Shown here piece by piece: positions 1 through 16,811 of a stretch of DNA of 16,811 nt (position 1 is its first letter; every line of letters begins with the position of its first letter). Origin of the DNA: a virus (lineage: Duplodnaviria; Heunggongvirae; Uroviricota; Caudoviricetes); IMG/VR virus record IMGVR_UViG_2579778842_000004; one strand, 5' to 3'. The notes beneath the pieces are model-generated. The model had not been told where the DNA came from, ran no database searches, and saw nothing but the letters and a program-made list of their open reading frames with translations. The position numbers and the translations under genes are program-made.

Positions 1-332
1 AAGATATATTGCTGATTTGAAAAGTTTTTCCCTGTTTTCAGCATGTCTTTCGGCATTATGGTTGCTATTTTTTATTTCAGGTATTAGTTCCTGTTCTACC
101 GCCATTTCGTATCGTTTTTTGCTCTTAGCTGCGTCAAAACTTCCATTAACCTTTGCGTCGTGAAGATATTCTAAATCAGCCTTTGTTATATAAATGTTTT
201 TATCTGACAGGCTACTCAGGTGAATCTGGGAACTTTGCATTTTGAATTTATATAGATCACAATCAAATGTTGCTTCAAGTCGCACATATGGCTCTCCACA
301 TTCTTGTGAATGATAATGTCGTGTTGTACTAC
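1..332. repeat. Terminal direct repeat, left copy (matches 16480-16811)
   Basis: Direct comparison: 1-332 equals 16480-16811 except one substitution (T at 49 vs C at 16528), which is synonymous in the minus-strand ORF. Identity runs to both window edges, so the true repeat may be longer. Confidence 0.95.
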
Positions 333-801
333 CGCGTACACGCAACAATCCGCATGCAATTGATTTTCTTACAATAAAAGAGTTTTTGCCAATTTGTTCA
401 AAAACATTTTTATTGTCTCTGTCTTCAACTGTCAGTGGTTTATGTGCATAAAATAGCTCATAAGCACCGCTTTCAGATGCTGGGATATAAACTTCGTTGC
501 TTGCGCTGGTAATAAGAAAAGGAAATGTAAACCTTACTTCTTCTGGGTACATAAGTAATAAATCAGTTATAAAATCAGCATCTTTTTTGAAGTGGATGGC
601 GGCATCAGCTTCAATGAAATCAAGAAAGTCAGCATAGACATAAAAGTCTATATGTAGTCTATCTTTCCAATGCCATATATCATCAATTTCACAATTTAAT
701 AATTTTGATGCTCGCTCTATCGTGCAGTAGTCCAAAGGTGGAATACCTGATTCCTGCCATAAATTTCTATGCACCGCAGTTGTTTCATGAGAGTCGTTCA
801 T
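1..801 (-). CDS. Hypothetical protein, AT-rich ('gene X'), 5' part; 3' end runs off the window start. Same gene as the 16315-16811 copy if the unit is circular or tandem (about 321 aa).
   Basis: ATG at 801-799 with AAGGTG 6 nt upstream; in-frame TAG further upstream excludes an earlier start. Open frame continues to position 1 (MNDSHETTAVHRNLWQESGIPPLDYCTIERASKLL...). Not in the ORF track because it is truncated. Visibly AT-rich compared with neighbours. Confidence 0.55.
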   Translation of the reverse strand, partial: MNDSHETTAVHRNLWQESGIPPLDYCTIERASKLLNCEIDDIWHWKDRLHIDFYVYADFLDFIEADAAIHFKKDADFITDLLLMYPEEVRFTFPFLITSASNEVYIPASESGAYELFYAHKPLTVEDRDNKNVFEQIGKNSFIVRKSIACGLLRVRGSTTRHYHSQECGEPYVRLEATFDCDLYKFKMQSSQIHLSSLSDKNIYITKADLEYLHDAKVNGSFDAAKSKKRYEMAVEQELIPEIKNSNHNAERHAENREKLFKSAIYL

Positions 802-896
802 TGCGTCACCTTTTACGCTGCGCCTTATTTTGTGATTGAGCCAGGCGGTAAGGCTTCCCGCTTTTCGCCCCGTCGAGCTAGGCTCAATCTATTCAG

Positions 897-2156
897 TTAG
901 TTCGCCCTTCTGAGAGGCGTTACGTTGTAGTCTTTTCCGCTTTCCAGTGCCACCAGCAGATCAGCCCACTGTGCCAGTGCTGCTTTACGCTCATCAAAAT
1001 ACTGATGGCGGTTATAAATCCCCTCTACGCCCTTAATGCGATGATTGAGGCATCGTTCCGCCACAACAGGATCAACACCCAACGCTGCTAAATGAGTACG
1101 TGCGGTGCGTCGGAAGTCGTGAATCGTGAAATTAGGCACATCCGGCATTTCGGCGCGAACCTTAGCCAGTGCTACGGGTAAAGTGCTTTCCTGAATATGT
1201 GGGATCATTCTGTTTTGCATCTTCCTGGCCGGAAGCACCCATGCGCTATTACATGAAAAGGTGTGTAGCTCTCTCAACCATTCAACGGCTGGGGAAGGTA
1301 GAGGTATATCAATAGGGTCTCCGTTTTTGCTGCGTTCTTCCGGCAAATGCCATACCGCACCATCTAAATCAAACTCTTCCCATCGTGCGGCGCATAACTC
1401 CATCTTACGAACGCATAGTGCCAGCAATAGCTTAAATGTCAGTTCGTTCTGGCGGCTGAATCCTTTTGCGGTGCGCATAGCCTCGAATAGCCTGATAAGC
1501 TCATCGCGAGTTAGCCAACGGTCGCGGGAAACCTCTTTACCACCAGCATCAGATACTTCAAACGCTGAACAAGGGTTTATCTCCAGAGCGTGGCGTTTTA
1601 TCCCATAGTCAAAGATACGGCGTGTCCAGCGTAATACATCTGTTGCTATCGTTGGTGCTCCTCGGTCAACGATACCTTTCAACATGTCGTCAATGTGGCG
1701 TGGCTTAACGTCCTCTACCTTCATATGCCCAATGCAGGGGTTAATATCCTTATCAATTCTCCGGCGAAGGATATCGGGATGTTTCCATCTCGGAAGTATC
1801 TGGCGCTCGAAGTATTCGGAGGCCAGATCTGAAACACGCATGGCGTTTTTCTCAGCCTCCATTTTTGCCAGTGCTTCAGCTTTTCGTTCCTGTTTCTCTG
1901 CTGCTACGTCATAGCCAAGAGCAACTCTGGCTGACAGCTCTTTTGCTGTTTCTCTGGCTTTTGATAGTGACAGTTCGGAGTAAGAGCCTATAACCATAGC
2001 CCGCTGCTTTCCTGCGAGCTTATAGCGGAATCGCCAGAACGGGACTGTGTAGTTTTTGGGGTAGCAAATATAAAGGCCGTTGCCGTCTGCCTTGCCATCA
2101 AATCTGTCTCCCGCCTTTATCCATGCGCGGATCTGCATATCTGTGAGTTTTGGCAT
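897..2156 (-). CDS. int: Tyrosine recombinase / integrase, P4-type (N-terminal arm-binding domain plus catalytic domain)
   Basis: N-terminus MPKLTDMQIRAWIKAG...DGNGLYICYPKNYTVPFWRFRYKLAGKQRAMVIGSY is typical of P4-family integrases. C-terminal catalytic motifs HDFRRTARTHLAALG and LNHRIKGVEGIYNRHQY (R...HxxR...Y). Start placed at the internal ATG (2156) rather than the track start 2240, because 2157-2240 is occupied by TGTACA repeats. Confidence 0.88.
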   Translation of the reverse strand: MPKLTDMQIRAWIKAGDRFDGKADGNGLYICYPKNYTVPFWRFRYKLAGKQRAMVIGSYSELSLSKARETAKELSARVALGYDVAAEKQERKAEALAKMEAEKNAMRVSDLASEYFERQILPRWKHPDILRRRIDKDINPCIGHMKVEDVKPRHIDDMLKGIVDRGAPTIATDVLRWTRRIFDYGIKRHALEINPCSAFEVSDAGGKEVSRDRWLTRDELIRLFEAMRTAKGFSRQNELTFKLLLALCVRKMELCAARWEEFDLDGAVWHLPEERSKNGDPIDIPLPSPAVEWLRELHTFSCNSAWVLPARKMQNRMIPHIQESTLPVALAKVRAEMPDVPNFTIHDFRRTARTHLAALGVDPVVAERCLNHRIKGVEGIYNRHQYFDERKAALAQWADLLVALESGKDYNVTPLRRAN

Positions 2157-2185
2157 TGCGAATACCTGAATATCGAATATGGGTG

Positions 2186-2236
2186 TGTACATAAAGCAAT
2201 GTACATGAAAGTCATTATGTACACCTCTATGTACAC
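2186..2236. promoter_or_regulatory. Array of four (A)TGTACA(C/T) repeats just upstream of int
   Basis: tgtacat 2186, atgtacat 2199, atgtacac 2216, atgtacac 2229, spaced 13-17 bp. TGTACA is self-complementary. Candidate operator or arm-type sites. Confidence 0.4.
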
Positions 2237-2281
2237 GCATATTGTGCGCTTTGTTGCGTCGTTATGATAGCTCATGATAAC

Positions 2282-2447: not shown

Positions 2448-2740
2448 CGGTTTTTTCGGGTGCTTTGGTCAGAAGCCATTGCCTACATCCCTCACGATCG
2501 AGGTGTGTAACCATGTTCAGGCTTGTTGTCCTGCGCGCGCGTATTGCTCGTGAAATTGCTGTACCCAATAGTGATGTCCGAAAAAACCTCCGTTCTCACA
2601 TGAAACAGCCATATGCAACTGGTAACTGAACAGACTGGTAGACCGTTCGTTCAGTAAATACCTGATATTTTCGCCAACGAGAAATTGCGTTGGCTGGCAG
2701 GGTGCAAATTTGCACGATGGACTAACCCATTGATTCTTTC

Positions 2741-2765
2741 GAAAACCCCCATTGGGGGAAAAGCC
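2741..2765 (-). terminator. Weak terminator-like hairpin downstream of the PerC-like gene
   Basis: On the minus strand CCCCC-AAU-GGGGG followed by UUUUC; lies about 115 nt past the stop at 2875. Adjacent perfect palindrome gtgcaaatttgcac at 2702-2715. Confidence 0.3.
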
Positions 2766-2874
2766 TAACTCATTGGTTTTCCCACAATCCTCAATTTGAG
2801 GAATGTACCTAAAACCATTTTTATAGCTCCGATCCCTTCAAAGTGAGGGGTAATTTGCCAAAACAGAGAGAGCA

Positions 2875-3162
2875 TTACTGTCTCTGGCAATCTTTATCGC
2901 GATAACGCCTGAAGTACCCTCTCGCTTCCTCATCCATACCAAGAGCCGAATGAGTCCGCTTAACTGCCTGTCTTAAATCTCCGAATCTGTCTGTAGTTGC
3001 TGGTGGGCGTGCCGCCTTACGGATACATTCAGAGCGTCTGTTTGCTGCATGTTCACGTTCTTTATCGCCATCTGCCAGCATCATGACTTCTGCCCATCGT
3101 GCGGCAGCTCTCCGGTATAGCCCTTTTGACTCCAGCTCTTCAGCTTTCCTGTCCCTTATCAT
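2875..3162 (-). CDS. Small basic regulator, PerC/ANR-family-like (tentative)
   Basis: 95 aa, MIRDRKAEELESKGLYRRAAARWAEVMM... matches my recollection of the N-terminal pattern of PerC-type small activators; GAGAGG 6 nt upstream of ATG. Family assignment is from memory, not a search. Confidence 0.55.
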   Translation of the reverse strand: MIRDRKAEELESKGLYRRAAARWAEVMMLADGDKEREHAANRRSECIRKAARPPATTDRFGDLRQAVKRTHSALGMDEEARGYFRRYRDKDCQRQ

Positions 3163-3198
3163 TTCTGCCTCTCAGATTATATAGATAAGCAAAAAGGT

Positions 3199-3319
3199 GT
3201 TGGTTCAGTTGGTTCAGTTGGTTCAATTTGTAAAGATCGTTGTTTTTATTGTGTTTTTTCTGAAATATTGAACCAACATCAACTCATTTTGAACCAACAC
3301 AGCCCAGCTCTGAACCAAC
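3199..3319. repeat. Iteron cluster A: 3 tandem GTTGGTTCA (3199-3225) plus 3 inverted TGAACCAAC at 3269, 3290, 3311 (21-bp phasing)
   Basis: Read directly. The whole block is an imperfect reverse complement of cluster B (9351-9461), including the shared spacer atttgtaaaga. Confidence 0.65.
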
Positions 3320-3373
3320 AACACAGCGATAGCTTTGTGATTGGCCCGTTATTTTCTGGCTGATATTTGAGCG

Positions 3374-3404
3374 TATAACAGTGTTATACAGTGGTATACT
3401 GTAT
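3374..3404. promoter_or_regulatory. Two adjacent palindromes upstream of the RHH gene (candidate operators)
   Basis: TATAACA-g-TGTTATA (3374-3388) and ATACAGT-ggtat-ACTGTAT (3386-3404), overlapping a TATACT -10-like hexamer about 12 nt before the ATG. Confidence 0.4.
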
Positions 3405-3421
3405 GGATATTACTCACTGAT

Positions 3422-3877
3422 ATGGTCTTTGCAATGAGCAAATCTAATCTGGTCGCGTTCCGCATCCCATCTGAATTGCAGGATGAGTTTAATCGGTCTG
3501 TTCTCGCTTCTGGAGGGGATAAAACCTCCTGGCTTGTTGATGCGATTCGCATGAAGCTGGGACAGCCGGAAAAGTCTATTGATTCACGAATGCTTGGGCT
3601 GGTGGAGCGCATGGAAAAAGCTGCTGCGTCGCTTATTGCCGGAAAGCCGAACATCCCACCAAAGCCATATAACGAAACGGCAGTTATAAAGATCATTGCC
3701 GATACCATCCGACAGGGATTTGATAATGGGCGTGTGATAGCTGAACGGATCAATGAAGCAGGCTATCAAACAAAAGCTGGTAAAGCGTGGGATAAAGATA
3801 TTTACAGCGCGTGGAAGCGTCAGGGAAGCAATGCTGAAAAGTTAAAAGCGGTGATTGATTGTAAGGTCAGCGTATAA
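3422..3877 (+). CDS. Ribbon-helix-helix (Arc/MetJ/CopG-like) DNA-binding protein with C-terminal extension
   Basis: N-terminus SNLVAFRIPSELQDEFNRSVLASGGDKTSWLVDAIRMKL fits the beta-strand/helix/helix RHH pattern. No clear SD; alternative start at ATG 3434. Confidence 0.6.
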   Translation: MVFAMSKSNLVAFRIPSELQDEFNRSVLASGGDKTSWLVDAIRMKLGQPEKSIDSRMLGLVERMEKAAASLIAGKPNIPPKPYNETAVIKIIADTIRQGFDNGRVIAERINEAGYQTKAGKAWDKDIYSAWKRQGSNAEKLKAVIDCKVSV

Positions 3878-4178: not shown

Positions 4179-4699
4179 ATATCCAATGTGTATGCTGTCG
4201 ATGCTACGCGCACGTACTTGTCGCAAAATATCAGACAAAAGCCAGATTCAGAACGTCGTGATAACCACCAGCACAACAGAGAGGTCATGTAACGCGATTT
4301 ATCACACCAGATACATGTGATTGGTGTACCCGCATAAAACATCGTCATAGCGCGTCCTGTGCGCATATACGCCGATAATCAACACATCACCACCACTCTG
4401 TCTCATGTAGAGAACACTTTTATGGTATCCCCCGCCATCGTGCGCGTACTAGTCGGACGCAGTTGCAAAACTTTTTGCAACTGATACCCCTCGCGCGCGT
4501 ACTTGTCTCGAAATTGGTGTTTTGCTGTGGCAGTGATATCAGAAAAATCTTCCTGTTTCACATAAAGCGGATATGCGCGTACTGTAACGACCCCATCAAC
4601 GGGGGCGGATTTGAAATCCCGACCCAAGCTATGTACCAAATGCCATGTCTTGGATATATGATGATTGCCATTCTAAACAACGCTAAAGGGAGGGTTGGT

Positions 4700-5314
4700 G
4701 TGAGCAGAAAAGATACTAAAGAATTGCTAACTATCTGCATGGTGTACTTTTCAATTTATTTTTGTGCATACATGATAGTCCCAGATGAGTTTGAACATGG
4801 CAGTATTATTTATTCCATAACATTCTATTTTTTAGAGCTAACACCAATTTTGGCTATCCTTTTGGCAATACATATTTATTTTTCCTTAAAAAAAGAATCG
4901 ACTAATTGGGAGAAGGTATGGAGAGACAGAGGATTTCTAACATCACCTAAAGATGATGCATATGAGAGTGATTTTTCAGACTTTATAACAAACTACTACT
5001 CCAGCGAACGATTCAAAAATAGACTGTCTGATGTTTGGGAAACAGCAATGTATTCTATAGGGATTATATTATTGATACTTACTGGTATTGCTCAATATGT
5101 TTTTAACATTGACTTATCATTAAATCCTGAAAATTTAATATCGCCATTGATTTTTGGTGAGATATTGATCTTCTCATTCGGAATTTTCTTGAGTGTTGTT
5201 CTCTGCTCATTATGCAAGCTACTGACTAACAGGTATCCGGGTGAAGCAAGGAGAGCAAGAAAGGCAAATCCATATTATCTTTTATTTCCTAATGGAGACA
5301 GCAGAGATATCTAA
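4700..5314 (+). CDS. AT-rich integral membrane protein, about 4 TM helices, unknown function
   Basis: GTG at 4700 preceded by AAAGGGAGGG (5-nt spacer). Composition drops sharply in GC at about 4690. Four hydrophobic segments (LLTICMVYFSIYFCAYMIV, IIYSITFYFLELTPILAILLAIHIYF, AMYSIGIILLILTGIAQYVF, LISPLIFGEILIFSFGIFLSVVLCSLC). The track's longer start (4463) would include repeat-rich DNA. Confidence 0.6.
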   Translation: MSRKDTKELLTICMVYFSIYFCAYMIVPDEFEHGSIIYSITFYFLELTPILAILLAIHIYFSLKKESTNWEKVWRDRGFLTSPKDDAYESDFSDFITNYYSSERFKNRLSDVWETAMYSIGIILLILTGIAQYVFNIDLSLNPENLISPLIFGEILIFSFGIFLSVVLCSLCKLLTNRYPGEARRARKANPYYLLFPNGDSRDI

Positions 5315-5332: not shown

Positions 5333-7348
5333 TTATTGAGCTTCCTTTTGCGATGCTTGTGCTGCTGTGGTCAGTGATTGTGTGACCGTACTGATCGCTC
5401 TGTCATATGCTGTGCTACCTTTTGGCGTATTTGCCAGACGTAACAAGGCATTTCGTATAACAGGGCTTTCGTATGCCTTCGCTGCTCCGCCTACGGCACC
5501 AGCAGCAGGAACAACAAACGCAGCCGTTTTTAGCATCCCCGCTAATACTGCTGCGTTTATGATGCCACCACCAACTAACAATCCATAAAGCTGCTGACCA
5601 TTTAAGTTTTGAACGTTCGCTTTTGCCGCGTGTCTTGTATCGTTGAGGTATTTAATAACGCCGTCCAGTTCCTTTCCATGTACGCCTTTAAAGAAAGTTG
5701 CTGATTGCTTCCTGTTCCGGTGTAACGCATTAATAAACTTCTCAACACTGATATTTCCAGACGGATCAGTCGCCTTATCTACAGCATTCTGAACTATGGC
5801 TGCTCGTGCGTTTTGCCTACCATTGTCATCCAGAAGCCTGTAAAGCTGAGAACGTTCTGATGGGCTTTGGCTAAAAACGAGTTTTGTTACATCCTCAGGC
5901 GTGGCCTTGCCGCTGGCTATTGCCTTTTGAACGCGCGTTCTTCCCATCATGTCATTGAATTTAGACCATGAGCGATCAACCCTTGCCATATTAATGGCTT
6001 CGTCTGCTCCAAGATTTTTGGCTACGGCTTTTTTCATATCCGCCGTATATGCCTTGTAGATAATATCGCTGGCTTTCTGGAGCGTATCTTTATCAACAGT
6101 GTCAGATGACGCCATAAATCGCTTTCGAAGATCGGTTCTGTTTTCCCTCGCCAGACGCAGGTCATTTGGTCCGCTGGTGATATCGTCTTTAAATTGCTGC
6201 AAGACTTTTACCGCGGCTCTATCCTGAGATTTGCCCGGGCGGCTTAACACGGCAATCTGATTGTCGATAGCTTTTACCGTGTTTGAGAGATCGACAGGGG
6301 TATCCCCCATAGCGTCAATTATGCGGTTATATCGCTTTCCTGCTGCCTCAATGAATTTTTGTTGCCCTTTAGTCGCAGATTCATAAAGCTGTTTATCAGA
6401 AATGCCACCCAGACCATCGCTAAATGTTCTGACTAAATTTTCTCGTGCTTGTTGTTGATTCAGCCGATTCTTACCGGTTCCAAAAAAAGGAACTCTTTCG
6501 CCTAATGTCTGAGCCTGACTCTGCATAAAGGTTTTATCTTTCAGCATGTCACTGGTCATTAACGGTAGGTTTCTTTCCGATGCAAAATCAACAGCGGCTT
6601 TCGCTTCCGGTGCCATATCACCGCGAACGGCCCTCGAAACGGCACTCACTGTATTCTCCAGACCCTTACCAATGCCGCCAATGCCAGCAGAGATTACCGT
6701 TTGTAACGGATCAATATCTTCTCCACCAGCAAGGCTGGTGGCTCCCTGTAGTGCTAAATCTGTAGCTGCTGATTTCCCTATGGCCCCCAGCACCGTTCCG
6801 GCCCTGCCCGCTGGTGTAAACGCCAGCGCATTAGCCAGAAACGATGCCACGTCTTGCGGCGATAAACCCGGCTTGTTCAGAGCATAATCACCGGATGGTA
6901 GGGAAACGATAGTGTTACCCTTCTCATCCTGCCTTAATTTCGCTCCCATGCTCTGAAGAATCTTTTCCTGAGATGCGTCAGAGCCGAAAAGTTGAGACCA
7001 TCGAGCTTTTAGAGCATCCATGCTGAGTGAGGTTAACTCTGGGGCAAGGTCGACATTTTGCAGTCTCTCCATCTCTGGAGTCATTCGGCTTTCGCCTGTT
7101 ATAGCATCGCGCATCGCAGCCCCAAGGCTGGCTCCCTGTTCTGCTGAACGCTCAAGCCCCTCTCTTTGCTGAGTAGCTAACTTTGCATACCCTGACGCAA
7201 GAGAGTTGTCTGCTGGCGATTGCTGAACACCTTGTTGTGTTGGTGCTGACTGACCAGCAAAATACTCATCAATGGCGGTGCCAATATCTTCGGTGCTCGT
7301 ACCATCAGGGAAGGTAAATGTCTTACCGTTTGCAGTTACTTTCATCAT
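5333..7348 (-). CDS. Large (671 aa) Ala/Gln/Gly-rich, largely helical-looking protein with C-terminal hydrophobic segment; function unknown
   Basis: Start overlaps the upstream stop (ATGA at 7348-7345). C-terminal [40 protein letters not shown] is membrane-like. No enzymatic motif recognised. Confidence 0.8.
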
Positions 7349-8736
7349 TCCACCGTAAATTGAATGCCTGATTTTGACGTGTAGCTACCTCCTGCTGATT
7401 GCTGAGTAGCTGGCTGTTGCCTTGATGATTTCTTCCCGCCATTACCGACATTAACGTTATATTGCTGGTTGTAATTGTCGGTATATTGCTGAATGTCGCG
7501 CATTGATTGTTGTAGTGCTTCAGGGCTTGAGAAATCAGGCTTTGGCATACCTTGAAAATACCTATTGGCCTCTGCTTCGGTGTTGATGCCAGATGCCCCC
7601 ATATCTCGGGCTGCCGCAATCCCCTGATTTTGCATTTTGCCCAGGATTCGCTGTGCAGCGTTGTATAGCCTCCTCTCCTCAGCACCAGATGCCCGGCTAC
7701 GAATATCTGCACCAAGAGCAAAAGAACCTGAAGAACCAGTAATACCTGTCATGAAGCCAATATCGTCAATTGATGCGCCAGAAATTGCCTCAAGATCTTT
7801 CTTCATTTCGTAATTCTGCGCATTAGCTGCCGACGTGGCCGGAGCAGCAATAGAGCCAGCTGGAACGCGAACTATGTTCCCCTCATTGTCTATACCTTCG
7901 TAGAACGCGTTAGCACCAGCACCATGAAGTTTCCCGCCTACGGTTACAGTTCTTCCGTCTGCTAGTTGAACTGTGCGCTCATTATTCCCAACCGCCCCTT
8001 TCATTGATGTTCTCTGCATCGCTAAATCCTGACCGCGCATCGTGATGTTCTGTCCTCGTGCTGTTAGCGCCTCGCCAGCCTGATTGCTGCGGATTGTCTC
8101 TGCCAACTTGTCACGCTCAATATCCCGACCTTCCATTTGATCTTTGATATCGAAGTACTTCTCATGGCCGAGAGAAAACAGTGCCAGATTACCTGCGAAG
8201 TGCTGGAAGCCCTGCGGGTCATTAACCTGCATTTCAGCAATAGTTTCTGGAGGGATACCTAAACGACGCATCTCCTTTTCGTTATCCATCATGAACCTGC
8301 CAAATGCGCCCGGACCAAGCGACGAAGCTACCTGTGCTTTAAGCGCCAGATTGCCAAAATCATCCCGCTGGGCGTCATCGACATACCCCATGCCTTTACG
8401 GACTTCCTCAAACTCTTCTGGGAATGCTGTAATAAGATTACGCATCTTCTCCCTGTCGCCGGACGCATAAGCATCTGCATAACCTTTCTGGAATGCCGCT
8501 TTACGCTCCTGCTGTTGCTGCTGCTTATAAATATCAGCAACTCCAGCCAGACCACGAAGACCTGTCAGAGCAACGTTATTTGCACCTGATCGAGCCAGTT
8601 CATTGTTTTCGCGGATCAGACCAAGCGTTGCGTTAATGTCGCTTGCCTTTGGCGCATTCTCATTTTGCGTACCGATGCCAGCCAGAAAACCACCAGAATT
8701 AATACCCTGTTGCCACGTAGCCATTGATTTACCCAC
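7345..8736 (-). CDS. Large (about 460 aa) low-complexity Gly/Ala/Gln/Asn-rich protein; function unknown
   Basis: Long ORF, translationally coupled to the 671-aa gene. Track start is GTG 8736; ATG at 8724 ([12 protein letters not shown]...) is an alternative. Confidence 0.78.
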
Positions 8737-9030: not shown

Positions 9031-9350
9031 CGTTCTGTATGTCAGGTTTTGACAGGTTTTTTATGGACTCTAAAAACTATATTTATGGTGTCGCATTACT
9101 CTTCACGGCAGGCGCTTTCCAGTTCTGCCCTTGCTTCTGGCTCCATTGGTAATTTGATTCGAAATCAGCTATGCGGATGGTTTGCTGAACAGGCATAACA
9201 ACTTCTCAGAGGCTGTTTTTTTGAACTACGAAAATTTCGTAGTGCTCACTTTCAAAAACGTCACGCCCTTGTACACAGGATTTTACGAAAGTCTCGTAAA
9301 GCACTCTCTGATGCCAGCCAGATGTTGTGCTCATCAATTCAGTCACGTTG

Positions 9351-9461
9351 TGTTGGTTCAAAATGCCGTGTTGTTGGTTCAGTGTTGGTTCAATAAAAAG
9401 AATAAAATCCTTATAAAACAATACTCTTTACAAATTGAACCAACTGAACCAACTGAACCAA
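9351..9461. repeat. Iteron cluster B: 3 GTTGGTTCA (9351, 9372, 9383) plus 3 tandem TGAACCAAC (9435-9461)
   Basis: Read directly; mirror image of cluster A, immediately downstream of the primase stop (9488). Confidence 0.65.
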
Positions 9462-9487
9462 CACCTTTTCTACGCACATGAAGAAGC

Positions 9488-12262: not shown

Positions 12263-12865
12263 TTAGTGCGTCACTGGTGCTTCTGGGATGCCGTTTTCGT
12301 TTAGTTCGGCAATAAAGCTGTTGTGAAGATCGGCAAGCACTTCTCGCCCAAACGAAGTGAGTGTTCCCTGTTCGACATCGAACATGTTGCTGTAAAAAAT
12401 GATGGCATTCTTTGTTCCGACATCAACACCATATTTCTCGATCATTGCGCCCTCAATGTTGTTTGCCATAGCGAGGCGCTCTGCTACTGGATACAGCGGC
12501 ATGGCGACGATGCCATTGGAATAAACAGAAACCACGGAATGATTGCCACTGTCATCAATAATGCTGACGGTGCCGTTTTCCTTTCTCATTTCATTGATGA
12601 ATGCTGTTGCTATCAGCCAGCGCCACATAATCACGTGATGCTGTGATGTGTAATCGAAATATCCCTGGTTGCCGCCACTGGCAATAGCGAGATGTATAAA
12701 CATGCCTTCATCTGGTTTATCGTCATAATCCCCGGCATCCAGACGATTTACGGCATCAATATATGAGACGGTCTCAACGCGTTCTGTCATGCCATCGTTG
12801 CTGCGGTACATGATGTTTACGCCGTCAGGCGTTGCTTCTGCATGGAAAGTTAAGAAATTATTCAT
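12263..12865 (-). CDS. Hypothetical protein (200 aa)
   Basis: Start moved to ATG 12865 (MNNFLTFHAEATPDG...), which overlaps the stop of the upstream 73-aa gene. The track start 12970 would overlap that gene by 35 codons. Confidence 0.6.
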   Translation of the reverse strand: MNNFLTFHAEATPDGVNIMYRSNDGMTERVETVSYIDAVNRLDAGDYDDKPDEGMFIHLAIASGGNQGYFDYTSQHHVIMWRWLIATAFINEMRKENGTVSIIDDSGNHSVVSVYSNGIVAMPLYPVAERLAMANNIEGAMIEKYGVDVGTKNAIIFYSNMFDVEQGTLTSFGREVLADLHNSFIAELNENGIPEAPVTH

Positions 12866-13079
12866 GTTTCGCCTCGCCTGAATGATTCTGTAACTCATAT
12901 TTGCCCAACAATTCGTCTGCTTCCTGAATAGCTTCTGGTACGCCATTGAGCAGTGACATAACCGCGCCAATCATTAACTTGTCTCTGTTGCTGGGGCTGG
13001 CCCCTTCAAGCCAGAACCCTAAAACAGTCTGAACCTGTTCGATACGACATTGCGCTTCAATGAGCTGGATGTTGGTCAT
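12858..13079 (-). CDS. Small acidic hypothetical protein (73 aa)
   Basis: Member of a chain of stop/start-overlapping small ORFs on the minus strand. Confidence 0.5.
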   Translation of the reverse strand: MTNIQLIEAQCRIEQVQTVLGFWLEGASPSNRDKLMIGAVMSLLNGVPEAIQEADELLGKYELQNHSGEAKHE

Positions 13080-13339
13080 TTCGCACTCTCCGCATCGATT
13101 AAACTGATATCTATCAGAGAGGTAACTTTTTGTAGCCAGCTAGTGATTACTGTCGCCTGTTCCCCTCCCACCGATGGAAGAATCTCATTCATCACATGAA
13201 CCAGACCTGTGCGCGCTCTGGTAAGCCGTTCAGTCGTGCGATCTGCAAGAGTGAATGTGTCTGGATATGGCTCTTCACGGCTCAGCAATGATTCAATTTC
13301 CAGCTCACACGGATGACGATAAATTAAGTTGATATTCAT
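13076..13339 (-). CDS. Small acidic hypothetical protein (87 aa)
   Basis: ATGA overlap with neighbours on both sides. Confidence 0.5.
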   Translation of the reverse strand: MNINLIYRHPCELEIESLLSREEPYPDTFTLADRTTERLTRARTGLVHVMNEILPSVGGEQATVITSWLQKVTSLIDISLIDAESAK

Positions 13340-13530
13340 TTTTCACCCCCAAGAATTACCAGCTCTGCACGGGCATCGTTAACCAAAGATGAGCACGCTT
13401 TAATCGCATCCACGACATCAGTAGCGTCCATTTCTTCAGCCGAAAGACTGACAGCAACCAGGACAGCCGCTGCTTGCTCGATTAATTGAAGTGCGGACGT
13501 AAGGCGAGGGGTATTAATTGAGTTATTCAT
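13336..13530 (-). CDS. Small acidic hypothetical protein (64 aa)
   Basis: ATGA-type overlap with neighbours. Confidence 0.5.
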   Translation of the reverse strand: MNNSINTPRLTSALQLIEQAAAVLVAVSLSAEEMDATDVVDAIKACSSLVNDARAELVILGGEK

Positions 13531-13741
13531 TGGTTTCCCCCGTTTTTACTGGCATTTCGCCACCTTCCAGCAGGAAATGAACGTCACGAACGGCGAGATC
13601 CAATATCGCGAGTAACGCCTTCAGTCTTTCGTCTCGTGAGGGAGAGTTGCTCACCAGAATGTCGTTAATCACTTCTGTCAGTGTGATGATCTGGCTTGTG
13701 CGTTCGAGGGGATCCATATGCACATCGTAGGTTTTAATCAT
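13523..13741 (-). CDS. Small acidic hypothetical protein (72 aa)
   Basis: ATG 13741 with GGAGGTG 6 nt upstream; overlaps the stop of the 13734-13928 ORF (CATGATTAA). In frame with the long 13523-14551 open frame. Confidence 0.5.
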   Translation of the reverse strand: MIKTYDVHMDPLERTSQIITLTEVINDILVSNSPSRDERLKALLAILDLAVRDVHFLLEGGEMPVKTGETNE

Positions 13742-14551
13742 GTGCCACCTCCATGCGGATACGACCAGCAAAAAAGCAGACGTGATCGCGCACCAGAGAA
13801 CGGCGAGCATCGCGTTCAGACTCGGCAGCAATATGATGAATTTTGGCGGTAATTGTCGGGCAATCGCGGCGAACTGCGGCGATAATCCAGATAAATTGCG
13901 GTTTTTGGGTAGGGGTAGTAGCCAGCATGTGGCAGCCTCCTTGATTGATGGTTTATAGCCACCGCCGGAGGTCCTAAGCTCGCTGGCGGTGGACTGTACA
14001 GGGTTAGGACTACTGGCAATCAAGGAAACCAGCCTGACCGAAGTCAGCCCCATACAGCCCACCATTGATAAGGTGTGCGTGTGCGCCGATACAAAAAAAG
14101 ACGCTGGCGCGTCATGTATCGCCTCGATTGCCTGCGGGGTCCTAATCCCGGCACCCGTTTTATGAGGTGCCTTATAACCATAAACCGTGTTGCCGCATAA
14201 CGGCAAGCTCTTTTTTATGGACTCCGAAAACTCACTATTGGAAGCACCAGATGCACAATACATCGCGCTCATTTCGTTAACGTCACGCACGTGGACGAAT
14301 GTTTTTGTGGAGTCACTACACGAGCAGAACAGGTGATCTACGACCAGAAATTCTCTGGCGCAGCCGCTGACCTTCTCAACGCTAACACCATCGACCGTAA
14401 TTTCTGACATAGTTAAGGCATCCGCTCCTACCACCAGCAAATGATAAACTTTGCTTGTATCTGCTGTATTAATGCCTGACTTTGCTGTCATATTGCTGGA
14501 TTTTGGCGACATACCAGCCAGTGAAAATGTCTTCTTCTGGACGGTTAGCAT
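13523..14551 (-). CDS. Long uninterrupted open frame (342 codons); N-terminal about 150 codons look coding, middle section coincides with RNA structures; possibly composite or frameshifted
   Basis: ATG 14551 has GGAGG 7 nt upstream and overlaps the upstream stop (ATGCTAA). No in-frame stop until 13523; a T7 run sits at 14099-14093. Alternative annotation is the two small ORFs listed separately. Confidence 0.3.
13734..13928 (-). CDS. Small basic hypothetical protein (64 aa)
   Basis: ATG 13928 preceded by textbook SD AAGGAGG (13942-13936, 7-nt spacer). The SD lies in the 3' arm of a predicted RNA stem. Confidence 0.45.
   Translation of the reverse strand: MLATTPTQKPQFIWIIAAVRRDCPTITAKIHHIAAESERDARRSLVRDHVCFFAGRIRMEVAHD
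13936..14113 (-). promoter_or_regulatory. Structured RNA leader/attenuator-like region (minus-strand transcript)
   Basis: 5' to 3' on the minus strand: hairpin GACGC-GCCA-GCGUC then U7 (14113-14093); CUGAC-UUCG-GUCAG tetraloop hairpin (14047-14034); 9-bp long-range stem CCUUGAUUG (14025-14017) pairing CAAUCAAGG (13947-13939), which contains the SD of the 13928 ORF and encloses an 8-bp hairpin CCACCGCC/GGCGGUGG (13992-13959). Confidence 0.4.
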
Positions 14552-14727
14552 TTGTTAACCTCCGCGAACTCCTTCATGAAACGCGCCAGCGGTTGTACGC
14601 ATGGCGATTGATACCCGTCGCGATAGAACGTCACTCGGTTGTGAGACACGCTTTCGACAGTAACGAGTGCTCCGTGGGCATCTTTGTAGCGTTTTTGAGG
14701 TTGTGGTGTTCCTGTAGGCTTAAACAT
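14545..14727 (-). CDS. Small hypothetical protein (60 aa)
   Basis: ATG 14727 with GGAGG 6 nt upstream, 4 nt after the AntA-like stop (MFKPTGTPQPQKRYKDAHGALVTVESV...). The track start 14814 would overlap the upstream gene. Confidence 0.5.
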   Translation of the reverse strand: MFKPTGTPQPQKRYKDAHGALVTVESVSHNRVTFYRDGYQSPCVQPLARFMKEFAEVNKC

Positions 14728-15553
14728 GGACCGCCTCCAGACGCTTAGCGAGCCAGCGTTGCGACAGGCGGGTGAGTTCTCCTTTGCGCTGCTCATATTC
14801 CATGCCCATATCAATTAACGTGATATTGGTGCTTTCGAGATATGAGAGGTGCTCAAGTTGTTCTGCGTTCATATGGTCGCGAGGTTCGCCAGAATAGCCA
14901 TTTATCCGCGCCCACTGCTTAGCAGTTAGCCCACCAAGAACGATACGAGAAATCATATTGCTCTCGTTTGTGTAGTGGTGTTGCTGCGTCGTTTTCCCCT
15001 GCTCGGCACGGGCCATATTCAGCGCATCGCACATTGGCTTAAAGTTGTTTGCGGCACTGATACGGGCTTTTAGCTGGCGACGATAGCGGGCGGCGATTTC
15101 AGGAACGCTACGCTGTAATTCTTCCTCGCACTGGATGAAATAACGGCGGATAGCGCGCCCCTGATCATTGCGTTCGATCATTGCCAGTTCTTTCGCCATT
15201 CCGACACTTAACAGATAGTCTTTGCCGGGTCTGCCAGAGTGCTTAATCTTGCTGTAAGCCGTGCCATTCGGGCTTTTCCCCAAATTTGGGGAAATTGTTT
15301 TATGGACTGAGTAATCGTGCCCAATGGTGAAGTCATATTCAGAGATGCGATCAGTGATCCATGTAGAGAAGTCTTTTCCCACGCCCAACGCTTTGTGTAA
15401 CGCTTTTGCGCTAACAATATTGGTTTCACGCCCACCGATATGACCAGGAATAACCGGGACAATTGCGGCAAATTCATTACCGTTAATTGTGCCCAGAGAG
15501 GCGTTCAGATGAGGGGCGGCCTCAGAAATTAATCTGCTTTTTTCGATGTTCAT
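14720..15553 (-). CDS. Phage antirepressor-like protein (AntA-type N-terminal domain)
   Basis: 277 aa; N-terminal segment ...NIVSAKALHKALGVGKDFSTWITDRISEYDFTIGHDY... matches the AntA/Bro-type signature as I recall it; GGAGA 7 nt upstream. Confidence 0.7.
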   Translation of the reverse strand: MNIEKSRLISEAAPHLNASLGTINGNEFAAIVPVIPGHIGGRETNIVSAKALHKALGVGKDFSTWITDRISEYDFTIGHDYSVHKTISPNLGKSPNGTAYSKIKHSGRPGKDYLLSVGMAKELAMIERNDQGRAIRRYFIQCEEELQRSVPEIAARYRRQLKARISAANNFKPMCDALNMARAEQGKTTQQHHYTNESNMISRIVLGGLTAKQWARINGYSGEPRDHMNAEQLEHLSYLESTNITLIDMGMEYEQRKGELTRLSQRWLAKRLEAVHV

Positions 15554-15565
15554 TTTCAGTCTCCG

Positions 15566-15997
15566 TTAGGCGGCGTTAAACGCGTTCGGGTAGAGTTTCA
15601 GAATGTCGGCAATTTCCTGCTGAGAAAGTCCGTTGTGATCATTTATGTTCGCAAGATGGTTAACATGAGTGATCACTTTCAGAACATCACCACGGCAGGA
15701 GAAACGGTAGCGAAGGTGTGTTCCGATACCATCAGGATTCTTTTCGTCGATACGCTCCAGAGTGATTCCAAGCTGGCGTTCTAACTCTGTTGCATAGTTA
15801 CGACCAGAAGACAGACGGCAGTAGCGAAGAATGTCATTTTCTGTCCATCCCTCTATACCAGTACGCAGCATATAGACTCTGGCACGATGCTTTTTCGGTG
15901 TGCGCTTTGGTTCTTGAAGGGATTTTGTAAGGGGCGTAACATCAGATACGCGAATATCTGAATTAGCCGCCTGTAATGGGCGGTTTTTCTTTTCCAT
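15566..15997 (-). CDS. Hypothetical protein (143 aa), translationally coupled to the AlpA-like gene
   Basis: ATG overlaps the AlpA-like stop (TGATG); AAGGTGG 5 nt upstream. Confidence 0.6.
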   Translation of the reverse strand: MEKKNRPLQAANSDIRVSDVTPLTKSLQEPKRTPKKHRARVYMLRTGIEGWTENDILRYCRLSSGRNYATELERQLGITLERIDEKNPDGIGTHLRYRFSCRGDVLKVITHVNHLANINDHNGLSQQEIADILKLYPNAFNAA

Positions 15998-16200
15998 CAG
16001 GCCACCTTCCCGCGGCGTTCTGCCAGCCAGTTGTGAATCTCAACCGCATCAAACGCAGTTATTTTTTCTCCCAGCTTTACCGGACGTGGTAGTGAACCGT
16101 TTCTTACTTTACGGTCGATGGTGGATACACTAACGCCCAGCAATTCAGCCAGGCGGAAGCGTCTGATATAGCCTTTTGTAGGAATAGTGTCGGTGTTCAT
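15997..16200 (-). CDS. alpA: AlpA-family / excisionase-type helix-turn-helix regulator
   Basis: 67 aa; RFRLAELLGVSVSTIDRKVRNGSLPRPVKLGEKITAFDAVEIHNWL fits the AlpA/Xis HTH pattern; first gene of the long minus-strand operon. Confidence 0.75.
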   Translation of the reverse strand: MNTDTIPTKGYIRRFRLAELLGVSVSTIDRKVRNGSLPRPVKLGEKITAFDAVEIHNWLAERRGKVA

Positions 16201-16204
16201 GCTT

Positions 16205-16259
16205 CCCGTAACCTCTTAGCGATAGTTGTTGCTTCGTTACGGGAGGAAGTATCTGTACA
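16205..16259 (-). promoter_or_regulatory. Leader of the AlpA-like gene: 8-bp inverted repeat around the SD plus one TGTACA motif
   Basis: CCCGTAAC (16205-16212) and GTTACGGG (16236-16243) separated by 23 nt; AAGAGG lies at the loop/stem junction; tgtaca at 16254-16259. Confidence 0.35.
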
Positions 16260-16270
16260 TATATGAACAA

Positions 16271-16298
16271 TAAAAAGGCACAGTAATGATACTGTGCC
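16271..16298 (-). terminator. Rho-independent terminator downstream of gene X
   Basis: Minus strand: stem GGCACAGU / ACUGUGCC (16298-16291 / 16284-16277), 6-nt loop, then U5 (complement of A-run 16272-16276); 17 nt after the stop at 16315. Confidence 0.55.
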
Positions 16299-16314
16299 TG
16301 AATAGTTAGCTACT

Positions 16315-16811
16315 CTACCCCTTACCGTTGGCGGCAGCACGTAAGTGTCTCAAAATCACATCTTCATTTGTGATTGCTAACGGTGGAATTTCGTCTTTAT
16401 GAGCCACTATGCAATCCCGCCACTTCTCAGGGCTTATTTCTTTCTTTTTGCCACGGCATTCATCAGGATACTTTGACAAAAGATATATTGCTGATTTGAA
16501 AAGTTTTTCCCTGTTTTCAGCATGTCTCTCGGCATTATGGTTGCTATTTTTTATTTCAGGTATTAGTTCCTGTTCTACCGCCATTTCGTATCGTTTTTTG
16601 CTCTTAGCTGCGTCAAAACTTCCATTAACCTTTGCGTCGTGAAGATATTCTAAATCAGCCTTTGTTATATAAATGTTTTTATCTGACAGGCTACTCAGGT
16701 GAATCTGGGAACTTTGCATTTTGAATTTATATAGATCACAATCAAATGTTGCTTCAAGTCGCACATATGGCTCTCCACATTCTTGTGAATGATAATGTCG
16801 TGTTGTACTAC
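16315..16811 (-). CDS. Hypothetical AT-rich protein ('gene X'), 3' part; 5' end runs off the window end
   Basis: Frame is open from the window end to the stop at 16315. The last 54 codons (LSKYPDECRGKKKEISPEKWRDCIVAHKDEIPPLAITNEDVILRHLRAAANGKG) are unique; the rest duplicates 1-332 in the same frame. Confidence 0.6.
   Translation of the reverse strand, partial: STTRHYHSQECGEPYVRLEATFDCDLYKFKMQSSQIHLSSLSDKNIYITKADLEYLHDAKVNGSFDAAKSKKRYEMAVEQELIPEIKNSNHNAERHAENREKLFKSAIYLLSKYPDECRGKKKEISPEKWRDCIVAHKDEIPPLAITNEDVILRHLRAAANGKG
16480..16811. repeat. Terminal direct repeat, right copy (matches 1-332)
   Basis: See left copy; offset between copies is 16479 bp. Confidence 0.95.

Follow-up and report, generated by a model that had tools for sequence, protein, structure and literature searches.

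The DNA analysed here, a stretch of 16,811 nucleotides that we call the window, repeats its own ends. Comparison of the two ends revealed that positions 1-332 equal 16480-16811 except for one synonymous mismatch (T at position 49, C at 16528), so the window is a circular permutation or a tandem read-through of a 16,479-bp unit. An open reading frame on the minus strand, referred to as gene X, crosses this junction, running from an ATG at 801 to position 1 and then from 16479 to 16315 as a single uninterrupted ORF of 966 nt that encodes 321 aa. The first-pass annotation, made from the sequence alone, had anticipated a protein of about this length and had placed it between an integrase gene (int) and an AlpA-like gene. 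Both points were confirmed by E. coli cq9, in which an identical CDS is annotated intact as a 'hypothetical protein' (WP_001555743.1) in the order yicC / int / X / alpA; the ORF is not disrupted in the real molecule, and homology revealed no housekeeping function. The features of the locus, all on the minus strand, are as follows, in the order in which they are read.

Positions 897..2240, minus strand: P4-type tyrosine integrase (ORF of 447 aa; annotated start giving 897-2156, 419 aa; Pfam Arm-DNA-bind_3, Phage_int_M and Phage_integrase; RefSeq annotation).
Positions 822..888, minus strand: int-alpA RNA motif (Rfam RF02996, 60.6 bits), 5' leader of X in the int-X spacer.
Positions 802..821, minus strand: ribosome-binding region of X, AAAAGGTGACGCA before the ATG (direct reading).
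Positions 1..801, minus strand: CDS of X, codons 1-267, with the ATG at 799-801.
Positions ~52-801, minus strand: variable cassette of X, about aa 1-250.
Positions 628-750, minus strand: N-terminal winged-helix segment of X, aa 18-58.
Positions 16315..16811, minus strand: 3' part of the CDS of X, with the stop codon TAG at 16315-16317; 16480-16811 duplicates 1-332.
Positions 16318-16545 (= 1-66 + 16318-16479), minus strand: conserved basic C-terminal module of X (C-module), aa 246-321 (family alignment, pN/pS, pLDDT 96-98, pI 9.0).
Positions 16266..16299, minus strand: intrinsic terminator of X, a 10-bp stem (16299-16276) and then a T-tract.
Positions 16206..16246, minus strand: inverted repeat CCCGTAAC-N24-GTTACGGG abutting the alpA start (RNA fold −15.4 kcal/mol, z = −2.4).
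Positions 15997..16200, minus strand: alpA, 67 aa (Pfam Phage_AlpA), an AlpA-family activator and the gene that invariably follows those of the X family.

The window represents a phage satellite of the PICI type, integrated at yicC and similar to EcCIMP1. Pfam analysis identified a P4-type integrase, AlpA, an AntA antirepressor, Ash, a Toprim-DUF927 primase and a P22-type ejection protein; a PerC-like ORF is also present, and iterons (GTTGGTTCA) lie at 3199-3320. The features by which Gram-negative PICIs are recognised are all found, namely int, alpA, a primase-replicase, an iteron origin, a size within about 10-20 kb and a specific att site, which adjoins yicC according to the annotation of E. 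coli cq9. AlpA is the master activator of E. coli PICIs (PMC6092414; PMC11773190), among them EcCIMP1, which was induced and transduced experimentally by the P22-like phage Kapi1 and for which helper-dependent induction and packaging have been demonstrated (PMC11773190). At the nucleotide level EcCIMP1 is 94% identical to the window across 12265-16007 and 90% across the primase region (90-94% over more than 7 kb), and the two share the antirepressor, DUF4222, Ash/Icd with C4 RNA, the DUF927 primase, DUF2824, P22-type ejection proteins and the PerC-like gene. This homology ends at the 3' end of alpA, and EcCIMP1 has another module in place of the whole int-(X)-alpA block: a tRNA-Thr integrase, another alpA allele and between them a 427-nt gap with only a small ORF, EcCIMP1_002. 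It has no X-family gene. Because the entire block differs, including the alpA allele, EcCIMP1 was not accepted as evidence that an island can do without X. Excision is compatible with the circular form of the window and with the circular Klebsiella records of 22 kb described below.

As the first-pass annotation had remarked, gene X is markedly AT-rich (GC 0.375 vs 0.472 for the window) and has a good Shine-Dalgarno sequence (AAGGTG, 6 nt ahead of the ATG, by direct reading) and a strong terminator of its own. The 57-nt stretch of the terminator folds at −21.3 kcal/mol (z = −4.9), and none of 200 shuffles was as stable. A promoter of its own, by contrast, is not evident, since neither a sigma-70 consensus promoter nor a terminator was found in the int-X spacer. 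The upstream gene, int, is the probable source of transcription, and in other alleles int and X lie 3-18 nt apart or overlap. X is probably translated off the integrase transcript, downstream of the structured leader formed by the int-alpA RNA, and the strong terminator ends the int-X transcript just ahead of alpA, insulating alpA. The inverted repeat next to alpA tracks the alpA lineage and not the X allele, being common to three X alleles, those of the window, of strain D8 and of TKEC.

The element at 822-888 is a bona fide int-alpA RNA, scoring 60.6 bits with the covariance model against a gathering score of 35.8, and its minimum free energy is −32.4 kcal/mol (z = −2.35). The same RNA was detected in 8 of 15 other loci scanned (49-65 bits), always on the strand of X and ending 18-21 nt before the ATG of the X-family gene, and in the loci that carry it the motif precedes X regardless of the allele; loci with tight coupling of int and X lack it. 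In one locus (L014) the outer stem is changed, apparently in a compensatory manner as read by eye. This position identifies the int-alpA RNA as a 5' leader of X-family genes within the int-X transcript. Rfam files the motif as a gene/sRNA named for the flanking int and alpA, whereas here and at the eight other loci it is the leader of a protein gene; the original description reportedly placed it merely between int and alpA and assigned it no cis or trans role. The Rfam motif hence gains a genomic role.

A word-indexed search with X returned 48 clusters, all 'hypothetical' and all from Enterobacterales. An exhaustive profile search extended the family to at least 604 clusters (604 representative clusters at E ≤ 1e-3, 165 at E ≤ 1e-10), mostly of 270-350 aa; the members with a named source belong to Escherichia, Salmonella, Yersinia, Xenorhabdus, Pantoea, Pectobacterium and others, with a single one in Chromobacterium. 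The 90%-identity cluster of X itself holds 374 member sequences, and 75 of 5,426 complete E. coli genomes contain at least 80% of the int+X query; a scan of one genome per species added only five extra loci. Searches of Pfam, NCBIfam and PHROGs gave no significant match to X, and its family is absent from 50,697 phage records. The few matches in the plasmid collection included mislabelled chromosomes and two circular Klebsiella records of about 22 kb; the one examined shows the layout X, AlpA, antirepressor, which indicates that this 'plasmid' is an excised island. The X family is an undescribed and unnamed, alpA-linked family of hypervariable proteins.

Family alignments divide X into three parts, an N-terminal segment, a hypervariable middle and the near-invariant C-module. 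The N-terminal segment (about aa 18-58) is moderately conserved, with A31 and D41 nearly invariant, and in the middle only G151 is nearly invariant. The C-module (aa 246-321) follows the consensus AERHAxNREKLFKSAIYLLSKYPDECRG..KEISPEKWRDCI..H..EIPPL.ITNEDVILKHLR; it is basic and helical and was modelled confidently (pLDDT 96-98). The abundance of Cys and His noted earlier is real (7 Cys and 14 His), and conservation is confined to C275 (invariant) and C290, H253, H294 and H312 (at least 90%), all in the C-module. The stretch RGSTTRH (aa 155-161), which had been singled out as an R-x5-H motif, lies in the variable part and reads IAGTVIQH and VSGTMVRN in the closest orthologues; as a motif it was rejected.

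Structure searches gave the N-terminal domain, for which no fold had been assigned earlier, a MerR/excisionase-type winged-helix fold (Excisionase/AlpA/TorI/RdfS-type), matched the middle and the C-terminal part to nothing beyond small helical or winged-helix domains of a generic kind, and found no enzymatic fold in X. Gene X thus encodes a non-enzymatic, hypervariable protein. Neither a Pfam MerR/MerR_1 match nor a basic DNA-contacting surface was found in X, and X matched neither Pfam HTH_17 nor Phage_AlpA (1 of 76 family members gave a marginal HTH_17 match, E = 0.005); in hhalign, the family profile aligned with the AlpA of the islands in the correct register with E = 0.0049 but a probability of 7%. 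The N-domain has a pI of 4.7 (net charge −4) and its putative recognition helix reads EIDDIWHW, an acidity atypical for a DNA-binding HTH; the pI is 5.9 for whole X, 9.0 for the C-module and 10.4 for AlpA. The same trend was seen across the family, in which the median pI is about 5.1-5.4 at full length and 4.3-4.6 in the middle region and only the C-module is basic, and D/E runs occur in the middle region. Given an acidic N-domain and a basic AlpA, we regard the fold as established and DNA binding by X as putative only.

Every X-family member whose neighbourhood was read, at about 20 loci, adjoins an AlpA-family gene and is co-oriented with it, and at these loci, which range from identical copies down to relatives at E ~1e-11, X lies directly upstream of alpA. 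They include the window and cq9, alleles from Salmonella, E. coli and Pantoea, strains D8 and TKEC (E. coli), the circular Klebsiella record, Cedecea, and Enterobacter, in which the island occupies a different att site next to der. The arrangement was found in 4 of 5 species-representative genomes. Among the most distant members, one lies in an island with BrxR/BREX-like genes and one in an island with a DUF3631 primase. Taken together, the loci with the X-alpA pair span different integrase and att types (yicC, der), primases (DUF927, D5, DUF3631) and cargo (BrxR/BREX-like). int is usually directly upstream of X, 3-130 nt away or overlapping. An HTH_3 gene takes its place at one locus (L032), a HicB-like gene with a small ORF lies upstream of X at another (L034), and an IS3 element separates int from X at a third (L020); X still abuts alpA in all three. 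The invariant of the locus is the X-alpA pair and not the adjacency to int.

In the E. coli islands at yicC, the slot between int and alpA is invariably filled by a single ORF of about 200-320 aa, the occupants being four X-family allele types, one 293-aa type and two basic unrelated ORFs (TUM1857 and NH-21). The 293-aa proteins (CX07/64.1) have a similar layout, and they were not accepted as members, as hhalign gave an N-terminal match only (E = 0.003, probability 10%). By eye, the slot proteins of TUM1857 and TKEC seem to end in divergent C-modules; this likeness was also rejected, the former scoring no better than shuffles and the latter marginally (4.6 bits). Between alleles, DNA homology runs through int (72-80% identity), ends with the stop codon of int, and resumes near codon 250 of X to continue through alpA. 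In strain D8, the AlpA protein is identical and the whole X gene, including the C-module, is replaced together with the terminator. X alleles are thus swapped as cassettes inside near-identical island backbones. Alleles only 18-34% identical in the N-domain and middle pair with integrases 86-92% identical at the same att site, yicC.

The selection acting on X differs between its parts. In the C-module, synonymous sites are saturated (pS 0.77-1.0) and pN is 0.06-0.22, indicating that conservation of this module acts at the protein level. Between true orthologues, dN/dS of the N-domain plus middle is 0.12-0.16; within one and the same island pair, dN is 0.44 in the middle, about 5 times that of int (0.08), and 0.03 in alpA. 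The AT-richness of X, which might be taken as a mark of recent import, is shared by all genes of the slot, including the conserved C-module and the unrelated occupants (GC 0.34-0.44, against 0.38-0.55 for the flanking int and 0.45-0.55 for alpA), each allele lying 8-18 GC points under its flanks. Its retention in every allele makes it a conserved feature of the locus instead.

X is neither a housekeeping gene nor an artefact, nor is it generic cargo. It is best explained as part of the int-alpA control module of a PICI-type satellite and not as interchangeable cargo. Within this module we tentatively propose, at a chance somewhat below even, that X serves in the quiescent state as a gatekeeper or sensor of the self-activating alpA switch, in an allele-specific way. 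X would gate alpA in the quiescent island as a repressor or anti-activator anchored through the C-module, and its variable N-terminal and middle parts may let each allele recognise a specific alpA-releasing signal, for which a helper-phage protein is the most plausible candidate; X would then be a functional analogue of the SaPI Stl and PICI Rpr master repressors.

Several observations point towards such a gatekeeper. X is strictly adjacent to alpA at about 20 loci in islands that otherwise differ, and its family turned up in no other context, with no phage record and a 'plasmid' that proved to be an excised island. The layout with int is operon-like, with the RNA at a fixed 18-21 nt from the ATG and a strong terminator before alpA. 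Purifying selection on the C-module is combined with a fast-evolving middle, and the replacement of cassettes in near-identical backbones is a pattern also found in Stl repressors, whose hypervariability is established (PMC6092414). The proposal also fits a stated gap, as no global repressor of Gram-negative PICIs is known and the induction of alpA by helpers is unexplained (PMC6092414).

Other findings argue against a gatekeeper. A search of the X-alpA spacer for an operator revealed no k-mers with meaningful recurrence in the island and no allele-specific operator, and alignment of orthologous spacers showed only the terminator and the alpA-proximal inverted repeat to be conserved; no binding site was thus found, and the repeat follows the alpA lineage. 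Both the N-domain and the whole protein are acidic, and X is co-oriented with alpA, while Stl and Rpr are divergent. In D8 an identical AlpA goes with a different X, C-module included, so X does not co-vary with AlpA, which also weakened the suggestion of a specific contact between the C-module and AlpA or Int. Finally, X is not universally required, since functional PICIs exist that have no X-family gene, namely EcCIMP1 and, as far as the gene numbering of the paper indicates, EcCICFT073 (PMC6092414).

The main rival, in our judgement somewhat less likely, takes up the first-pass idea in modified form: the accessory region at the int-proximal (5') end would encode in X a conflict-related protein, made hypervariable by an arms race. 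Such a protein could be an anti-phage or interference factor, non-enzymatic and acting as a single protein on a phage component that it binds, or an anti-defence 'establishment' protein made together with Int on entry into a new cell. The 5' ends of PICIs are reported to carry immune genes (PMC11364771), and SaPIs and PIMEs have accessory regions that lie between int and the regulatory module. The exchange of cassettes in near-identical backbones and the filling of the slot by unrelated ORFs in TUM1857 and NH-21 are in keeping with this explanation; so are the acidity of the proteins and the D/E runs of their middle regions, which are compatible with protein or DNA mimicry, and co-transcription with int, which implies expression both when integrated and on entry. 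EcCIMP1 confers superinfection immunity without a recognisable defence system (PMC11773190), though it has no X.

Several findings count against the conflict explanation. PADLOC-DB v2 returned for X only a partial PDC-S31 match (E = 0.002, 15.5 bits), which occurs in 1 of 76 family members and is spurious, and had no match among 10 other slot proteins; altogether, PADLOC recognised none of about 17 proteins of the int-alpA slot, no slot protein matched Pfam, and no known defence system has ever been seen in the slot, unlike in real hotspots. Defence genes are promiscuous (Tai occurs in phages, P4-like elements and PICIs), whereas the X family was found only upstream of alpA and never in phages. 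Moreover, where extra genes have entered the locus (HicB-like, HTH_3, IS3) they sit upstream of X, which stays beside alpA. The first-pass reading of X as a swapped-in defence cargo thus survives in part: cassette exchange, AT-richness, a location in the immune 5' region of PICIs and unrelated ORFs in the slot agree with it, and the strict alpA linkage, the missing PADLOC and Pfam matches, the absence from phages and of an enzymatic fold, the conserved nature of the AT-richness and the structured RNA leader speak against it.

X could instead assist the integrase in recombination, as an architectural or directionality cofactor that acts at att and descends from an excisionase-type winged helix, though we consider this improbable. 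The excisionase/AlpA/TorI/RdfS-type fold and the usual place right after int, often translationally coupled or overlapping, would suit such a cofactor, but its alleles show no co-variation with Int or att (18-34% identity under integrases 86-92% identical at yicC), its N-domain is acidic, loci L032 and L034 have no adjacent int and yet keep alpA adjacent, and AlpA already provides the excision function in related PICIs (PMC11773190). That the locus acts mainly as DNA or RNA, an AT-rich block for H-NS-type silencing plus a terminator keeping alpA off, with the protein of minor importance, is very unlikely: the GC content of every allele is indeed 8-18 points lower than that of its flanks, each gene is followed by a terminator and alpA has to stay silent, but the ORF is always intact (about 200-340 aa), the C-module is confidently modelled and purifying selection at the protein level is clear (dN/dS 0.12-0.16; C-module pN 0.06-0.22 with saturated pS).

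Returning to X as a gatekeeper of alpA, a fuller version, which taken as a whole we hold to be a long shot, would have the family supply the gatekeeper that senses the helper and has so far been missing for a large class of Gram-negative int-alpA islands and PICIs. X would be Stl-like or an anti-activator, its hypervariable part would recognise a specific helper-phage protein, its C-module would hold alpA off, and the int-alpA RNA may serve as a riboregulatory leader that sets the dosage of X from the integrase transcript. X is a concrete and cheaply testable candidate for the alpA switch of Gram-negative PICIs, coming from a widespread family that is described in no database, locked upstream of alpA and allele-variable in constant backbones. 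Should it prove to act in defence or anti-defence, it would represent a new single-gene, non-enzymatic system on satellites in several percent of E. coli genomes.

Among known systems, YfjH of the cryptic prophage CP4-57 (E. coli K-12) occupies the same slot between intA and alpA and is of similar size (318 aa), but it lies on the opposite strand and shows no detectable similarity to X; identity of the two was rejected (BLASTP E = 0.43, no match to the family HMMs). Compared with AlpA/excisionase and MerR-family proteins, X is 4-5 times longer, its N-domain has a pI of 4.7 against 10.4 for AlpA, and it appears to lack the MerR-family layout, a long dimerisation coiled-coil with a C-terminal effector-binding domain behind it. 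The immune genes at PICI 5' ends and Tai-type single-protein immunity (PMC11364771) resemble X in being small non-enzymatic satellite proteins from an int-proximal immune region, but there is no homology, and Tai-type genes are spread over phages, P4-like elements and PICIs at several hotspots, whereas X is found only upstream of alpA. SaPI Stl and Gram-positive PICI Rpr share no sequence similarity with X, have an XRE-type HTH where X has an acidic MerR/excisionase-type domain, and are divergently transcribed, whereas X runs in the same direction as the downstream operon, with a terminator between the two. They nevertheless resemble X in being a single gene between int and the activation or excision-replication operon, in their strong divergence among otherwise similar islands and in combining an HTH-type N-terminus with a variable region, which in Stl and Rpr binds a helper-phage protein and in X is a candidate for the same role.

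The window is a circular permutation. Its positions 1-332 and 16480-16811 form a 332-nt terminal overlap, which lies inside gene X, the AT-rich ORF between int and alpA, and carries one mismatch (T at 49, C at 16528). This overlap with its single mismatch fits a satellite, excised or concatemeric, whose sequence was assembled from a slightly mixed population. Among the comparison loci, Klebsiella pneumoniae pKpvST101_4 (L025; CP031371.2), a circular molecule of 21,845 bp deposited as a 'plasmid', displays the gene order X-family, AlpA, antirepressor, DUF4222, and is probably not a plasmid but a satellite or island in excised form.

In Symbiopectobacterium purcellii (L020), an IS3-family element (orfA/orfB, 2730-3835) splits int from the X-family gene, which still adjoins alpA despite the insertion. 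The position directly upstream of alpA is filled in E. coli CX07 and 64.1 (L029/L030) by a 293-aa acidic protein in an X-like layout, for which homology to X was not demonstrable, and in TUM1857 and NH-21 (L023 and L031) by two basic ORFs, 208 and 216 aa long, that overlap the int stop codon. None of these alternative occupants gave a database match.

Repeats were found near the starts of int and alpA. Five copies of the motif GTGTACATAA lie within 2185-2449, some of them within the 24-nt sequence ATTATGTACACCYYTATGTACACG, which is present as direct repeats (2214-2237 and 2426-2449). Placed to either side of the presumed attP core, beside the start of int, these copies are candidates for binding by Int, as arm-type sites, or by AlpA. 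At alpA there is one further element:

16206-16246, minus strand: inverted repeat CCCGTAAC-N24-GTTACGGG, directly before the alpA ATG

The SD-like AAGAGG immediately ahead of the ATG sits within this repeat, which is kept alongside three different X alleles; more distant alpA lineages (L011, L014) have other inverted repeats in its place. It could be a site through which AlpA regulates its own gene, or it could form a hairpin in the 5' UTR.

The replication and cargo regions comprise the following features:

3199-3234 and 3267-3320: GTTGGTTCA iterons, three direct and three inverted, on either side of an AT-rich stretch
4463-5314, plus strand: 283-aa ORF in the most AT-rich stretch
5333-8736, minus strand: P22-type injection/ejection protein genes (463-aa Inj_translocase, E = 1e-83; adjacent 671-aa ORF)

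The iteron array and AT-rich stretch lie on the upstream side of a PerC-like ORF, and together they form the predicted PICI-type replication origin. A second, related block near 9348-9469, beside the primase start, was identified solely by a BLAST cross-hit to the related E. coli PICI EcCIMP1. The 283-aa ORF, located at the GC minimum of the whole window (about 0.31-0.36), matched neither Pfam nor PADLOC, and is probably the other cargo candidate of the first-pass annotation. The P22-type genes are unusual PICI cargo, comparable to EcCIMP1_017-019 of EcCIMP1.

Two RNAs and an antirepressor gene were also found:

13982-14069, minus strand: C4 antisense RNA (Rfam, 80.2 bits)
14094-14170, minus strand: isrK (Rfam, 63 bits)
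14720-15553, minus strand: 277-aa AntA-type antirepressor, its C-terminal half matching PDC-S22, a PADLOC candidate defence model (E = 1e-10)

Both RNAs are enclosed by the Ash-family ORF region (13523-14551), and in related islands there are also c4-a1b1 target sites, together with a gene annotated as Icd-like. Based on these features, the satellite appears to carry a module resembling immI of P1 (c4-icd-ant).
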